Assembly: GCA_947167695.1 (NCBI GenBank)
Contig: CAMVIX010000001.1
Coordinates: forward strand, 8,680-72,679
Direction of reading: 5' to 3'
Length of the DNA stretch: 64,000 nucleotides
Source: an uncultured Clostridiaceae bacterium
GTDB lineage: Bacteria > Bacillota > Clostridia > TANB77 > CAG-508
Both the position numbers and the translations under genes were made by a program. Positions 4,244 to 40,035 of this stretch are shown here, in pieces. The notes beneath the pieces are model-generated. The model searched no databases. It had not been told where the DNA came from and saw only the letters and a program-made list of their open reading frames with translations. Numbering within the stretch: the stretch's first letter is position 1; every line of letters begins with the position of its first letter.

Positions 4244-5387
4244 CTATATTTTTTTAGACAAAATTACTTCTATCGTATACTCTCTATTATTCCTTACAAC
4301 GGTTAGCACGACCCTATCATCAGGACTTTTACTATAAATGTAGCTCCTTAGTTCACTCATTTTTTCTATTTTAGTATCGTCTATTTTGCAAATAACATCT
4401 CCAATTTTAACTCCTGCCTTGCTAGATGGTCCATCTAGTGCAACTTGCGCTACATATACTCCGGAGTCTAAATCTTGTTTTGATTCTATATAAGGAATAA
4501 CCTCCTTGTCATATCCAAATATACCTAAATATGCTTCTTCTACTGATTCGTTGTTTACTAATTTATTTACTATTGGCTTAATAATGTTTATAGGAATTGC
4601 AAATCCTATTCCTTCAGCAGATGTAATTTTTACCGAATTTATTCCTATTACTTCTCCATCTGCATTTATCAGTGGTCCGCCACTATTTCCGAGGGTTTAT
4701 TGTTGCATCTGTTTGTATTAGGTCTTCCATATAAACCTCTTGGCCATTTTCTTCTAGTTTAATAGTCCTATTTTTCGCACTTACTATTCCACCAGTTACT
4801 GTTCGTTGAAATTCAAATCCAATCGGATTTCCTATAGCATACACCATATCAGCTATTTTTACGTTTTCAGAATCTCCAAGTAGCACATATTTTAACCCTC
4901 TTGCATTAATTTTAACAATAGATAAATCTATTTCACTATCTGCCCATATTACGTTTCCACTATATGATTTTCCACTTTCTAGTGTAACATAACAAGTAGC
5001 ATATTTCCCACCTGATACGTGCTCGTTGGTTAGAATATATCCATTATCTGTTATAATTATTCCTGTGCCTAGTCCTAGCTGCGAATTTGCATCACTTAAA
5101 AATACTGTATTTCCTGTGCTTTTCAGTTTAGATATTCCAACAATACTGTGGCTTACATTCTCTATCATCTCACTAATTTCTTGCCCCTTTAATTTGCTTT
5201 CTGCTAAATTTCTATTTAAACTTACATTAGTCTCATTAACTTCTTCTTCAAATGGCTTTATTTCTATTCCTAGATACATGTTATGTAATAAAATACTGTC
5301 TACTGCAACACAAATTACAATTCCAAACAAACTTAAAATTCTCTTTAATTTTGGATGTTTTATTTCTTTTGGTTTATATCTGTACAT
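4244..5387 (-). pseudogene. HtrA/DegP-like trypsin-fold serine protease with a PDZ domain; frameshifted near 4683-4690
   Basis: ORF 4683..5387 contains TNEHV and ...GIVSA...IQTDATINP, then a stop. The unlisted downstream frame continues GNSGGPLINADGEVIGINSVKI..., then a PDZ domain, to a stop at 4244. A 1-nt deletion in the AAA run restores the frame. Confidence 0.6.
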
Positions 5388-5454
5388 AATATACCTCCAC
5401 TATATGGTTATTATTACCAAAAGTCTTCACTCTTAAACATTGTTTCACAACAGA

Positions 5455-5484
5455 TTGACATTTTGTGAATAAACATGCTATAAT
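5455..5484 (+). promoter_or_regulatory. Consensus sigma-A promoter (TTGACA-N18-TATAAT) driving a small RNA
   Basis: TTGACA at 5455-5460 and TATAAT at 5479-5484. There is no plus-strand ORF downstream. Confidence 0.6.
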
Positions 5485-5490
5485 GATAGT

Positions 5491-5577
5491 ACAATAAAAA
5501 GGAATAAGCATACGCTTATTCCCTTGGGTTTTGACTTGATGTTTCTCTTGGCGGGGTAACATCAAGTTCTTTTTTTG
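5491..5577 (+). ncRNA. Candidate ~87-nt antisense sRNA, putative type I antitoxin
   Basis: The transcript predicted from the promoter contains hairpin GGAATAAGC-ATA-CGCTTATTCC (5501-5522) and terminator hairpin ACTTGATGTT...AACATCAAGT + T9 (5534-5576). It is fully antisense to the 3' end of the 35-aa peptide gene. Confidence 0.45.
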
Positions 5578-5669
5578 TTATCTTGAAGCTGTATCCGTAT
5601 TAGGCCGCAAACAAAAACAAGAACTGATAAACATAGAAGCACAAATCCAATTCCAATTAATACGTCCAT
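5562..5669 (-). CDS. 35-aa hydrophobic peptide MDVLIGIGFVLLCLSVLVFVCGLIRIQLQDNKKRT, candidate type I toxin
   Basis: Not in the ORF track because it is under 60 aa. ATG at 5669, TGA at 5562-5564, and SD AAGGGGGTGG just upstream. It has a single transmembrane helix and a charged tail. Its 3' end overlaps the convergent sRNA. Confidence 0.5.
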   Translation of the reverse strand: MDVLIGIGFVLLCLSVLVFVCGLIRIQLQDNKKRT

Positions 5670-5774
5670 AGCACCACCCCCTTTACCATATAGTTAAATT
5701 TAACAATGTATACTTTTATACATTGCTAAATTAGGCCGTATGATGCCATGGGGTGAAGTCAAAACACTTATGTA

Positions 5775-5803
5775 ACATTATCACAATAAATATGTTTTGT
5801 CAA
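5775..5803 (-). promoter_or_regulatory. Candidate promoter (TTGACA-N17-TAATGT with extended TG) for the small-peptide mRNA
   Basis: Read on the minus strand. It would give a ~100-nt structured 5' UTR (hairpins at 5693-5704 and 5704-5725). Confidence 0.35.
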
Positions 5804-5825
5804 TATGTATATGCGAATTTTTGTT

Positions 5826-6461
5826 TTATCTTTTTAATTCTTTTCTGCATTCTTTGTAATTTGGCACGTACTTTTCTACTAAACTCCAGAATTCTTTAGA
5901 ATGATTCATGTGCTTTAAATGGCAAAGTTCATGTATTACTACATACTCAATTAGTTCTTCTCTTTTTTTGATTAGATTCAAGCTCAAAGTAATATTTCTT
6001 TTGCTAGAGCAACTTCCCCATGCTGAATGTATATCTCGTATTTTCCATGAGTCTGGAGCAAGTCCTGTTAGTTCCATCATCTTTTGTGTTGTTTTTGTAT
6101 ACTGCGTTAAAGCACATTTTTTATATAGATTTTTTATCAGTTTTTCTCTTTTCTCGGTGCTGTCTTTGCTGATGTAAATATAGGCTTTTTCGTCTTTAAT
6201 TTCTATGCAGTCTCTATTAGAATTGATTATATTAATTTCATATTTTTCTCCAAGTAGCTCAATATATTTCTCATTATCTTCGTTCTTTTCTTTTTGAACA
6301 TTTAAATGTTTGTTTATCCACTTTTCTTTATCTTTTATTAGCTTTTCTATTTCTTTTTGAGTCATCCTTTTGGGGACTCTAACATATACCTTACCATCTT
6401 TTATTTGTATATACATATTCTTTATGCTTTTTTTAACAATTATATAGTCCATTTCCTCCAC
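5826..6461 (-). CDS. DUF45 / SprT-YgjP-like HExxH metallopeptidase
   Basis: The C-terminal HELCHLKHMNHSKEFW motif is typical of the YgjP/DUF45 family. Confidence 0.6.
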   Translation of the reverse strand: MEEMDYIIVKKSIKNMYIQIKDGKVYVRVPKRMTQKEIEKLIKDKEKWINKHLNVQKEKNEDNEKYIELLGEKYEINIINSNRDCIEIKDEKAYIYISKDSTEKREKLIKNLYKKCALTQYTKTTQKMMELTGLAPDSWKIRDIHSAWGSCSSKRNITLSLNLIKKREELIEYVVIHELCHLKHMNHSKEFWSLVEKYVPNYKECRKELKR

Positions 6462-6493
6462 CCAAAAGAAATTATATCTTTTTTATTAAACTA

Positions 6494-6522
6494 TTGCAAC
6501 TATTTTACTCTTATGCTAAAAT
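6494..6522 (+). promoter_or_regulatory. Candidate promoter TTGCAA-N17-TAAAAT upstream of the NRPS
   Basis: Sequence match only; a second TGACATAAT extended -10 lies at 6533-6541. Confidence 0.35.
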
Positions 6523-6562
6523 AAACTTGAATTTTGACATAATATGTTTAAAGGTGATAAAA

Positions 6563-9500
6563 ATGGTGAAACAGTATTATAAATTAACCAACCCTCAAAA
6601 CTCAATTTGGCAGACCTGTCAGGTATTTCCTAATACATCTATTGGGAATATTTGTGGGACTGTTTTTATAGACGAGAAAATAGATTTTTCAGCTTTAGAA
6701 AAATCCATCAATAAATTTATAGAAAAAAATGATAGTTTTCGTTTAAAAATTGTAATTAACGGAGATGGTCCTAAACAATATGTAAGTAATTTTGTGCCTT
6801 TTAACATTGAAGTTAAAAAAATAGAGTCCGTAGAAGATGTATCAAAGCTGGAAAAGGCTTTAGTTTCATGCCCTTTTTCAGTAGTAGATAATCTTCTTTT
6901 TACGTTTGTAATGTTCGAATTTCCAAATGGTGAAGGTGGTTTTATTATGAATGCACACCACCTTATCGTTGATGCTTGGACTGTTGGTACTGCTCTTAAC
7001 GGAATTATTGAACATTATGAATATTTTACTGATAAACGCAAAGACGTTTCTGAAAGCTATCCATCATATGTTGACTTTATTAATTCTGAAAAAGAATATC
7101 TTGAAAGTGAAAAATATAATAAAGATAAAGAATATTGGGAAAACGCGTTTAAGCAAATTCCAGAATGTGCAACAATTACTGGTTCAAAACAGTCTATAAG
7201 CAATTCCTGCGAAGCTAAAAGAATGGAATTTAATGTATCTAAAAAATATGTTGAAAAAATTAATGAATATTGCAAAGAAAACAAAGCCTCTTTGTATACA
7301 TTCTTCATGGCTGTATATGGATTATATATTAATCGTGTGTCAGCATTAGACGATTTCACTATTGGCACACCTATTTTAAATAGAACCAATTTCAAAGAAA
7401 AACATACTACTGGAATGTTTGTAAGCACAGTTCCTTTTAAATACAATATAAAAAGTGATATAAGCTTTTCAGAATATCTCACTTACATAACTACAACCTC
7501 CCTGGGAATGCTTAGGCATCAAAAATATCCATATTCTCATTTGCTAGCAGGCTTAAGAGAAACAGATTCATCTATTCCTAACTTGTATGATGTTGCTATA
7601 TCATACCAAAATATTAGAAGTAATAAGCAAACAGCAAAAGTAAAATATCACACAAAATGGAACTTTAATAATTGTTTAGCCGATAACTTAAATGTACACA
7701 TATATGACACAGATGATACTGGAAGCCTTGATATTGCTTACGATTATAGAACTTCTATATATAGTGAAAATGATATTTCTATGCTTCACAAAAGAATTTT
7801 AAATTTAATCGAGCAAATTATAGAAGAGCAAAATACAAAACTTAGCGAACTTGAAATTGTTACACCTGATGAAAAAAATTCAATTCTACATGAATTTAAC
7901 AATACAAAACTTGACTATCCAAAAGGTAAAACGATAGTAGAACTTTTTGAGAATCAAGTAGAAAAAACTCCGAACAATATTGCTGTTGTGTTTGAAAATA
8001 AGCAATTAACATATGAAGAATTAAATAAAAAAGTAAATAGCTTAGCTCATTATCTAACAAAAACTGGTGTAAAGCAATATGATATTGTTCCTGTAATGAT
8101 AGATAGGTCTGCGGATTTAATCATTTCTATGCTCGCTATTATTAAAATAGGTGCAGTTTATTTACCAATATCACCAGAAGTGCCAGAAGAAAGGGCTTCT
8201 TATATAATTCGAAATAGCAAAGCAAACTATGTGTTGTCCCAAAAGGATCATCAATGGGGCAATGCAAAAACGGTAGTTATTACTAACGTTGATTATTCGA
8301 AATATAACAATAATAATCTAAATGTTGCAATAGACAATAAAGATAACTTGTACATCATATATACATCTGGAACTACCGGAAATCCTAAAGGGGTAAAAGT
8401 TAGTCATAATAATCTTGTAAACTTTGTATACAGTTTTAATTTTATATATGGAAATATAACCGACGAAGATAGACTTTTGGCATCTACAAATATTTCTTTT
8501 GATGTTAGTATTTTTGAGTGTTTTATGGCTTTATTAAATGGTGCCTCCCTTTACCTTTATGAAGAACCTAATATAAGTAACATATTTGACTATTGCAAAA
8601 ATATAATATCCAACGAAATAACTTTTGCATATATTGCACCTAATATTTTAGATCTTGTTTATAATGTTTTATCGAAAGAAAAAGATGTTAAATTAAATAA
8701 GCTTTTATTGGGTGTAGAACCAATACCATCAAATATTATAAAAAAATATTATTCTTTGAACCCAAATTTTAAAATAGTTAATGCTTATGGACCAACTGAA
8801 ACAACTATATGTGCAACAGCAATTTTATTAAATAAAGATATTTTAAATAGTTATGACATTGTGCCAATAGGAAAACCACTCAATAATTTAAACATATTAA
8901 TTTTGGACAAATTTATGAAATTAGCTCCAGTTGGTGTTCCAGGAGAAATATATATTGCTGGAGATAACGTTTCAAATGGCTATTTAAATAACGAAGAACT
9001 TACTGCCAAATCATTTGTATCAATCCCAACACTTGGTATTGATAGGGCTTATAAAACAGGAGACATTGCAAAATGGGATTATGACGGTATTATAAGCTTT
9101 ATTGGAAGAAATGATAATCAAGTTAAAATCAATGGCCATAGAATTGAGCTAGGCGAGATTGAGGCTTTAATTGCAAAGTTTCCAACAATTAAAAAGGTAA
9201 CTGTAATAAAACAAACCATAAATAAAAGGGACTGTTTATGTGCCTATTACATTTCAGAAGAAAAAGATATTACCAATAATCTTAAAAAATATCTTTCTGG
9301 GTATCTGCCAAAATATATGATGCCTTCATATTATGTTGCTTTAGATAATTTTCCATGCACAGCTAATGGCAAAATTGATAGAAAAAAACTACCACTGCCG
9401 GAAATTATAATGGAAAATAAGGAAATAGTTTTGCCTAGAAATGAAATAGATAGTAAATTAATCGATATATTTAAGAATGTTTTAGGCATAAATGCAATAA

Positions 9501-39959: not shown

Positions 39960-40035
39960 TGGTGGGCAATCGGGGTCTCGAACCCCGGACCTTCTGATTA
40001 AGAGTCAGCTGCTCTACCAACTGAGCTAATCACCC
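39960..40035 (-). tRNA. tRNA-Lys (anticodon CTT)
   Basis: Cloverleaf folded by hand: acceptor GGGTGAT/ATTGCCC, D-arm GCTC-AGTTGGT-AGAGC, anticodon loop CTCTTAA, T-arm CGGGG-TTCGAGA-CCCCG, and an encoded CCA. A terminator hairpin follows at 39908-39955. Confidence 0.85.

Follow-up and report, generated by a model that had tools for sequence, protein, structure and literature searches.

The window analysed here, a stretch of 64,000 nucleotides (nt) from an uncultured Clostridiaceae bacterium (contig CAMVIX010000001.1 of assembly GCA_947167695.1, forward-strand positions 8,680 to 72,679), carries a compact cassette of 349 bp at 5455-5803. In this cassette a minus-strand gene for a small membrane peptide and a predicted plus-strand small RNA (sRNA) converge and overlap at their 3' ends. 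The cassette is bounded by two inward-facing sigma-A-type promoters, giving each strand a promoter of its own, and its ends are the two -35 boxes, one per strand. It is very probably a real unit made up of a peptide gene and an antisense RNA, and it probably represents a true type I toxin-antitoxin pair. No toxin or antitoxin family in Pfam, NCBIfam or Rfam matches it, and it is therefore filed as a new family within the type I systems, of the 3'-convergent kind and with a fold-back of the mRNA like that of hok and aapA, a placement that we consider likely. The case for this new family is well supported by comparison alone. A preliminary description of the locus, made from the letters of the window, had already put forward the type I interpretation, which is supported by a coding signature over the 24 N-terminal codons of the predicted toxin, by strand-specific hairpins and by an occluded Shine-Dalgarno (SD) sequence.

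The peptide gene extends on the minus strand from the ATG at 5669 to the TGA at 5562 and encodes 35 residues, MDVLIGIGFVLLCLSVLVFVCGLIRIQLQDNKKRT. This unannotated open reading frame (ORF), with its single transmembrane (TM) helix and KKR-containing tail, is present where the preliminary description had placed it. Residues 3-24 are hydrophobic and are followed by the tail RIQLQDNKKRT. The relatives described below keep the motif M-[DE]-x-x-I-G-I-G-F-[VI]-[LI]-L-C-[LF]-x-x-L-V-F-[VI]-x-[GD]. Over codons 1-24 the differences among the relatives compared are distributed over the three codon positions as 153:45:301, and the ratio of nonsynonymous to synonymous substitution rates (dN/dS) is 0.05-0.3, indicating at the sequence level that the ORF is translated and under purifying selection. 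With 35 residues in the window and 30-51 residues in the relatives, the peptides have the properties by which type I toxins are recognized, namely a length below 60 residues, a hydrophobic character, a TM helix and a charged C-terminus (PMC6563280).

The window peptide was not found by look-up in a collection of 15 billion proteins, and a HMMER scan of 1.84 billion representatives gave one match, P0121 (E = 1.8e-6). The public call of P0121 (931-1095 of contig L005) reads a TGA as Trp and is 54 residues long; under translation table 11 the product has 35 residues and ends in NKKRT. The family can thus be reached by protein search only because P0121 was miscalled through its stop codon. Relatives were collected starting from P0121, from one long-form relative and from two custom DNA patterns, yielding about 14 peptides and ten loci for which DNA is available (the window, L005, L006 with the further contigs L007-L009, L010 with L011, L012, L013, L014, L015, L016 and L017) and six further family peptides without DNA. 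The peptide-based DNA pattern matched two of 185,579 species genomes and nothing in the JGI metagenomes or IMG/VR; the RNA-based pattern matched one metagenome contig and no viral contig. The search for the peptide and the sRNA hairpins elsewhere, which had been proposed as a check, was thus productive: relatives occur in uncultured ruminant or gut Clostridia, the named sources being "MAG: Clostridia bacterium RGIG2116, goat colon" and "MAG: uncultured Clostridium sp.".

The cassette is found in at least four unrelated chromosomal neighbourhoods. In the relatives it is flanked by ylxM and an adenosine-deaminase-like gene, by pgeF and addB, or by an S66 peptidase (LD-carboxypeptidase) gene and pgeF. 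The loci sit among core genes and not in mobile elements. Whether the peptide and the sRNA elements travel together had been set as a test that could refute the interpretation; they do so, with the promoter and both hairpins, in all ten loci and across these contexts. Conservation of the elements in ten loci implies that the arrangement is not due to chance.

The plus-strand promoter facing the ORF lies at 5455-5484 and has the form TTGACA-N18-(TGc)TATAAT. Called a textbook promoter in the preliminary description, it is a 12/12 match with a TG extension and the sole such match in 4500-7000. Across the loci, TTGACA-N17/18-TATAAT is complete (12/12) in nine of ten and reads TATACT (11/12) in the remaining one, and the spacers diverge between sub-clades. 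No ORF of 25 residues or longer starts between 5485 and 5750 on the plus strand, in agreement with the earlier statement that none lies downstream of the promoter. The predicted antisense sRNA (5491-5579, plus strand) is ~88 nt long and consists of an A-rich leader, hairpin 1, a single-stranded linker GGGUUUUGAC and the terminator hairpin 2. An RNA of ~87 nt with two hairpins, the second being a terminator, had been anticipated, and the segment 5490-5582 does fold as two hairpins followed by a U7 run. Its free energy is -29.7 kcal/mol (z = -5.06), a value reached by none of 200 shuffled sequences. The sRNA is fully complementary to the last six codons, the stop codon and the 3' untranslated region (UTR) of the peptide mRNA, as had been claimed. 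The complementarity amounts to ~85 nt and covers the codons, the stop, the site between the hairpins and the terminator.

Hairpin 2, the intrinsic terminator of the sRNA (5533-5579, plus strand), is composed of an outer stem (5533-5543 paired with 5558-5568), an inner G-U stem and a U-run at 5570-5576. The same DNA, read on the mRNA strand, forms a hairpin over the stop codon. Hairpin 1 is the intrinsic terminator of the peptide mRNA (5490-5525, minus strand), a stem-loop running from 5525 to 5498 and followed by a U-run. The role of minus-strand terminator had earlier been assigned to the hairpin at 5501-5522, and the stem-loop with its T-run does score as terminator-like. Both 3' hairpins are conserved in all ten loci.

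A DNA hairpin folds on both strands, and wobble pairs were therefore counted separately for each strand across the loci. All 72 cells of hairpin 1 (5498-5525) are paired on the mRNA strand, compared with 67 of 72 when the sRNA strand is read, the difference lying in cells that are G-U in one case and C-A in the other. For the inner stem of hairpin 2 the pattern is reversed, with 30 of 31 cells paired on the sRNA strand (21 of them as G-U) versus 9 of 31 on the mRNA strand; for its outer stem the counts are 76/80 and 68/80, respectively. This strand-specific asymmetry of G-U and C-A suggests that hairpin 1 has been selected as the terminator of the mRNA and hairpin 2 as that of the sRNA. The asymmetry is comparative evidence for both predicted transcripts that is independent of the promoters. 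What characterizes an antisense RNA of the type I class is thus found in silico, in the form of a conserved convergent promoter, a predicted strand-specific terminator and ~85 nt of complementarity.

The two ends of the peptide mRNA are predicted to be joined by a long-distance helix. The 5' arm (5765->5756, minus strand; GUUUUGACUU) lies 2-4 nt from the mRNA's inferred 5' end, and the 3' arm (5537->5528, minus strand; AAGUCAAAAC) is situated between the two 3' hairpins, inside the target of the sRNA. The partner strands are GUUUUGAC and GUCAAAAC. In the window, the arms pair in the minimum free energy (MFE) fold with a pair probability of 1.00. In relatives, GUUGGAAC(UU) is paired with (AA)GUUCCAAC, which corresponds to three compensatory double changes in the core of the helix, and L010, L012 and L015 have co-varying extensions of it. 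Covariation was computed on a gap-free alignment anchored on fixed motifs. Seven of the 13 pairs show double-sided change, and none of 500 shuffles reaches the observed values. Upon sliding one partner by 1-3 columns, the pairing drops from 80.8% to 24-42%. The mean pair probability of the helix is at least 0.83 in nine of ten full-length folds. The single-stranded linker of the sRNA has the same sequence as the 5' arm.

The promoter of the peptide mRNA (5775-5803, minus strand) comprises a -35 box TTGACA at 5803-5798, a spacer of 17 nt with a TG at 5783-5782, and a -10 box TAATGT at 5780-5775. The relatives have TTGACA/TTGATT-N17-TATAAT/TATAGT boxes 8-9 nt upstream of the conserved 5' element, matching the position of the promoter in the window. 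It is through this comparison that the cassette is found to run exactly from -35 box to -35 box. The transcription start site is inferred at ~5768, resulting in a 5' UTR of ~99 nt and an mRNA of ~275 nt that ends at ~5490. This agrees with the structured 5' UTR of ~100 nt described earlier, the whole minus-strand mRNA being strongly structured (z = -4.9).

The SD region is located at 5681->5672 on the minus strand (GGGGGUGGUG), and the strong SD noted ahead of the ORF is confirmed as GGGGGTGGTG at the same position. An anti-SD, CACCCC at 5750-5755 (minus strand), is the complement of the GGGGUG of the SD. The SD is paired in both the MFE and the ensemble folds of the window, the mean unpaired probability being 0.33 over the SD and 0.02 over the AUG. 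Each of the eight 5' UTR folds tested has the SD, the AUG or both paired (z = -4.2 to -6.8). In a register fitted by hand, anti-SD and SD co-vary as CACCCC/GGGGUG in the window, CCCACC/GGUGGG in L005-L012 and (A)UCCCUCC/GGAGGGA(U) in L013-L017. The predicted folds also contain a central 5' UTR hairpin (5699-5731, minus strand) with a stem of ~14 bp and an AAAG loop, in which six of 12 pairs show compensatory double changes (RNAalifold). A conserved upstream mini-ORF at the CCAUG motif was considered and ruled out, because the AUG is missing in L006.

In the window the cassette lies between an M48/YgjP peptidase gene (5826-6461, minus strand) and htrA (from 5387, minus strand); a desulfoferrodoxin gene and a large nonribosomal peptide synthetase (NRPS) gene are further neighbours. 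No database record was found by exact look-up for the desulfoferrodoxin or, at 100% identity, for the M48 protein. Relatives of the M48 protein at 70-80% identity are encoded on contigs (L001-L004) that keep the same gene order. In these syntenic relatives the spacer between the M48 gene and htrA is ~55-220 bp long and contains neither peptide, promoter nor hairpins. As judged from its absence in close syntenic relatives, the cassette is an accessory insertion of ~380 bp in the lineage of the window.

These features suggest how the cassette might work. The full-length mRNA would be translationally inert, because its 5' end would be clamped to the 3' site and the anti-SD would close the ribosome-binding site (RBS). 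The sRNA would bind the 3' region of the mRNA. The initial contact would probably involve either the G-rich loop of the sRNA terminator and a complementary C-rich loop of the mRNA, or the sRNA linker and the mRNA's 3' arm. The ~85-bp duplex formed in this way may be cut by RNase III, by analogy with txpA/RatA and bsrG/SR4 (PMC3834814, PMC6563280). Since the linker has the sequence of the 5' arm, binding would have to displace the clamp, and opening of the clamp would either expose the mRNA's 5' end to degradation or reshape the RBS region. Upon loss of the sRNA, the peptide would be made and would damage the membrane.

The Gram-positive systems in which an antitoxin RNA overlaps the 3' end of the toxin mRNA provide the closest comparison. 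In bsrG/SR4, which has such a 3' overlap, the first contact is between the terminator loop of the antitoxin and a loop of the mRNA, and the antitoxin both promotes decay and tightens the sequestration of the SD (PMC3834814). The cassette resembles txpA/RatA and bsrG/SR4 in its small peptide, which has one TM helix and a polar or basic tail, in the partial sequestration of the SD and in a convergent antitoxin RNA that extends across the toxin mRNA's 3' end; the complementarity of terminator loop and mRNA loop known from bsrG/SR4 is also present in the window. Unlike those systems, it has no peptide or RNA sequence similarity to them, its predicted sRNA is shorter (~88 nt) and complementary over its whole length, its mRNA has a co-varying 5'-3' helix with the 3' arm inside the antitoxin target, and its loci are outside prophages. 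The geometry that the preliminary description had likened to txpA/RatA, bsrG/SR4 and fst therefore holds for the first two, with their 3'-end overlap; the comparison with fst is looser.

In hok and aapA, the full-length mRNA is closed by long-distance pairing of its 5' and 3' ends, which is supported by covariation (PMC6733600). The cassette shares with hok/Sok and aapA/IsoA a covariation-backed 5'-3' interaction in a full-length mRNA that is predicted to be translationally inert. However, the antitoxins of hok and aapA act by pairing with the 5' region, and the mRNAs become active through 3' trimming, whereas the sRNA of the cassette overlaps the 3' end only. Furthermore, what closes the SD of the cassette is a nearby upstream anti-SD rather than the 3' end, its peptide is unrelated to those toxins, and its host belongs to the Firmicutes.

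The type I toxins of Clostridioides difficile are 34-59 residues long, with homologs of 30-56 residues, and have a hydrophobic N-terminus and a Lys-rich C-terminus; their genes are convergent and overlap those of the antitoxins (PMC6563280). CD2517.1-RCd8, CD0956.2-RCd10 and their prophage homologs are similar to the cassette in having clostridial hosts, a convergent overlap, and toxins of similar size and layout. They differ from it in that no peptide similarity is detectable by tblastn on phage and plasmid collections (low-complexity filter on), and in that the cassette loci are situated away from clustered regularly interspaced short palindromic repeat (CRISPR) arrays or prophages, in uncultured ruminant or gut Clostridia.

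Several observations weigh against the interpretation of the cassette as a toxin-antitoxin pair, or against parts of it. The window peptide has no resemblance to known toxin families. Pfam and NCBIfam models of type I toxins (TxpA/BsrG, Fst/Ldr, Hok, TisB, Ibs and others) gave no match at E-values up to 10 (window) or 1, and the only toxin-like match was to Hol_Tox, with 13.8 bits against a cut-off of 23.3. For the RNA, no Rfam family reaches its gathering score with the cassette or with six related loci, the best being ctRNA_pT181 with 28.9 bits versus 56. The tails vary across the family, and that of L015, RLCFTY, holds a single basic residue. There is no second copy of the cassette within the 64-kb window, and no link to phages or plasmids was found in the phage, plasmid and viral-contig searches; in both respects many type I systems differ. 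The tblastn search with the peptide (50,697 phage and 72,556 plasmid records, low-complexity filter on) gave no match at E-values up to 10.

Other points of this kind concern the RNA elements. The -10 box of the peptide mRNA in the window (TAATGT) is weak, the sRNA terminator of L010 contains a C-A mismatch, and the 5'-3' helix is weaker in L005, where its pair probability falls to 0.23. Since there are only ~10 sequences in three sub-clades, the covariation rests on few independent events. The covariation of the anti-SD with the SD is weaker than the result for the 5'-3' helix, because MAFFT misaligned the SD region and the register had to be fitted by hand, whereas the helix was analysed on a gap-free alignment with fixed anchors.

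The peptide might instead be a harmless small membrane protein, such as an OadG-like subunit or a regulator of a membrane complex, that is merely tuned by a cis-antisense RNA. We regard this as unlikely, although some findings speak for it. OadG, the gamma subunit of Na+-translocating decarboxylases (PF04277), likewise has an N-terminal TM helix with a GxGFV motif. Against a gathering threshold of 27 bits for OAD_gamma in Pfam, the window peptide scores 17.6 and long forms of the family score 30.5, 25.0 and 22.7, near the threshold and in one case above it, which also counts against a toxin. All ten long forms make weak contact with the NCBIfam model oadG_fam (TIGR01195). The position of the loci among core genes would suit a harmless protein, and toxicity is only predicted. 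However, the similarity to OadG is limited to the GxGFV TM helix, the oadG_fam score of 21.7 bits is well short of the cut-off of 36.05, and a family profile compared with solved structures retrieved no OadG chain at E-values up to 10. No gene for a decarboxylase alpha or beta subunit lies beside any locus, the neighbours being M48/HtrA, YlxM, PgeF, AddB and the S66 peptidase. Unlike OadG, the peptide has its own promoter, a predicted antisense RNA and an occluded RBS. Patchy distribution as an accessory cassette, two promoters of its own, an occluded RBS and a 5'-3' clamp are together features that mark a type I toxin and not a housekeeping subunit. Membership of the OadG family was ruled out by the sub-threshold scores of the window peptide and in NCBIfam, the lack of a match to an OadG chain in the Protein Data Bank (PDB) and the lack of oadA/oadB-type linkage.

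It is very unlikely that the plus-strand RNA mainly acts in trans as an sRNA in its own right, or serves a downstream gene as its leader or attenuator, the hairpins being just a bidirectional terminator and the overlap non-regulatory. Speaking for it, in L005-L012 the sRNA promoter is co-directional with the flanking genes and the sRNA has an extra 5' leader of ~50 nt. Against this, the neighbours differ in every context and the peptide and the sRNA are always together. The sRNA also stops at its own conserved strand-specific terminator and is complementary to the mRNA over its entire length. A riboswitch or downstream-gene leader was rejected on similar grounds, because the contexts differ between loci and in the window no plus-strand gene follows, the next one lying ~900 nt on and past a gene on the opposite strand.

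Promoter-like hexamers are common at 30% GC (16 found versus 14 expected), but the probability that the cassette is a chance pattern in AT-rich intergenic DNA, or a functionless remnant of a decayed mobile element, is negligible, since its sRNA promoter is unmatched in the region, both RNAs have z-scores of about -5, there is no transposase and no terminal repeat except the two -35 boxes, and conservation in ten loci with a coding signature and compensatory changes effectively refutes the chance reading. A miniature inverted-repeat transposable element (MITE) with terminal inverted repeats was also rejected: the repeats in question correspond to helices inside the RNAs, and the two -35 boxes make up the sole terminal repeat.

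New type I families come to light regularly. To our knowledge, hardly any such systems have been described from Clostridia other than C. difficile, since gene callers and homology searches overlook them. The cassette adds a family of RNA-controlled membrane peptides, novel in sequence, from uncultured ruminant and gut Clostridia. It appears to join two principles that are usually described apart, the Gram-positive-style 3'-overlapping antisense RNA and the 5'-3' clamp in the style of hok and aapA. Being compact and having two promoters, it might serve as a tractable model for the interplay of antisense RNA and clamp. If the peptide is toxic, the cassette could possibly be used for counter-selection or plasmid stabilisation in Clostridia.

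The 35-residue form of the peptide is a minority variant. Most relatives are 50-51 residues long and have a tail of the form GY..K.(N)KELD[IV]AP.... A single C, at 5597, sets the length of the window peptide; if it were absent, the minus strand would read through 5596-5516 as GYSFKITKKELDVTPPRETSSQNPRE, giving a peptide of 50 residues that ends at a TAA (5518-5516). Four members from three sub-clades, namely the window, L005, L013 and L015, contain a single additional base at codon 24/25, the boundary between TM helix and tail (5595-5597 on the minus strand of the window, ~1003-1005 in L005, ~2092-2094 in L013 and ~452-454 in L015). The extra base converts a peptide of 50-51 residues into one of 30-35 residues with the tail RIQLQDNKKRT, RIYNQINKKRT, RLYGTYRKK or RLCFTY, respectively. 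The site is not a repeat tract, and the long frame is open in all four members. In the long frame there is a modest excess of third-position differences, 24 versus 11 and 10.

The tail DNA doubles as the sRNA terminator and is thus conserved in either frame. The stem AACTTGA...TCAAGTT spans the KEL codons of one frame and the RT-stop codons of the other, and the U-run of the sRNA is the complement of the AAC-AAA-AAA-AGA (Asn-Lys-Lys-Arg) codons. The short forms may be selected truncations, sequencing indels or products of frameshifting. The coverage of contig L005, according to its name, is 1.1x, which bears on the indel reading. Three features had escaped the preliminary description: the long-distance helix, the inserted (accessory) nature of the cassette, and the fact that the 35-residue peptide is a shortened variant of a family of 50-51 residues.

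A reading that combines the two peculiarities of the cassette, an antitoxin that mimics the mRNA's own 5' end and a peptide tail that is a two-state element, seems rather improbable. The linker would then compete for the 3' site, unzip the clamp and hand the mRNA over to 5' and double-strand-specific RNases. A one-base change would toggle the tail between 6-11 and 26-27 residues on DNA that is held fixed by the antitoxin terminator. The two states might reflect recurrent selected attenuation, or +1 frameshifting at a rare CGG codon that would give both isoforms.

A similar frame break is found in the adjacent htrA gene (4250-5387, minus strand). Near 4690-4692 the gene is split into two frames by one additional C, which precedes GGA within the GNSGGP catalytic-serine motif and gives the same local pattern as at C5597 in the peptide gene. 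The HtrA proteins of the relatives are intact (344-381 residues), and the window copy may be either a pseudogene or the result of an assembly indel. Directly upstream of the htrA SD there is a palindrome, ATATGG-N9-CCATAT, that is kept in L001, L003 and L004. The window (TTTTGG-N9-CCATAT at ~5397-5425, minus strand) and L002 have one or two changes in the arms. The palindrome might serve a stress regulator as its operator.

Two further observations concern the insertion sites. When L007 (positions 1 to ~525) is compared with L006, the two contigs are identical from a point slightly upstream of the peptide -35 box and beyond, but L007 carries unrelated GC-richer DNA further upstream; the break is either the 5' boundary of the cassette or a sign that the L007 contig is chimeric. 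In L002, a different GC-rich insert of ~170 nt with no Rfam match occupies the same site between the M48 gene and htrA (~5640-5800), which may be an insertion hot spot.

The NRPS gene (6494-14023, plus strand) is divergent from the M48 gene and encodes 2509 residues with two modules and a terminal reductase. It is syntenic in L003 and L004; L001 and L002 carry an NRPS of ~1400 residues at the same position. The sole Rfam match at gathering score in the 64-kb window is a tRNA gene at 39963-40035 on the minus strand.

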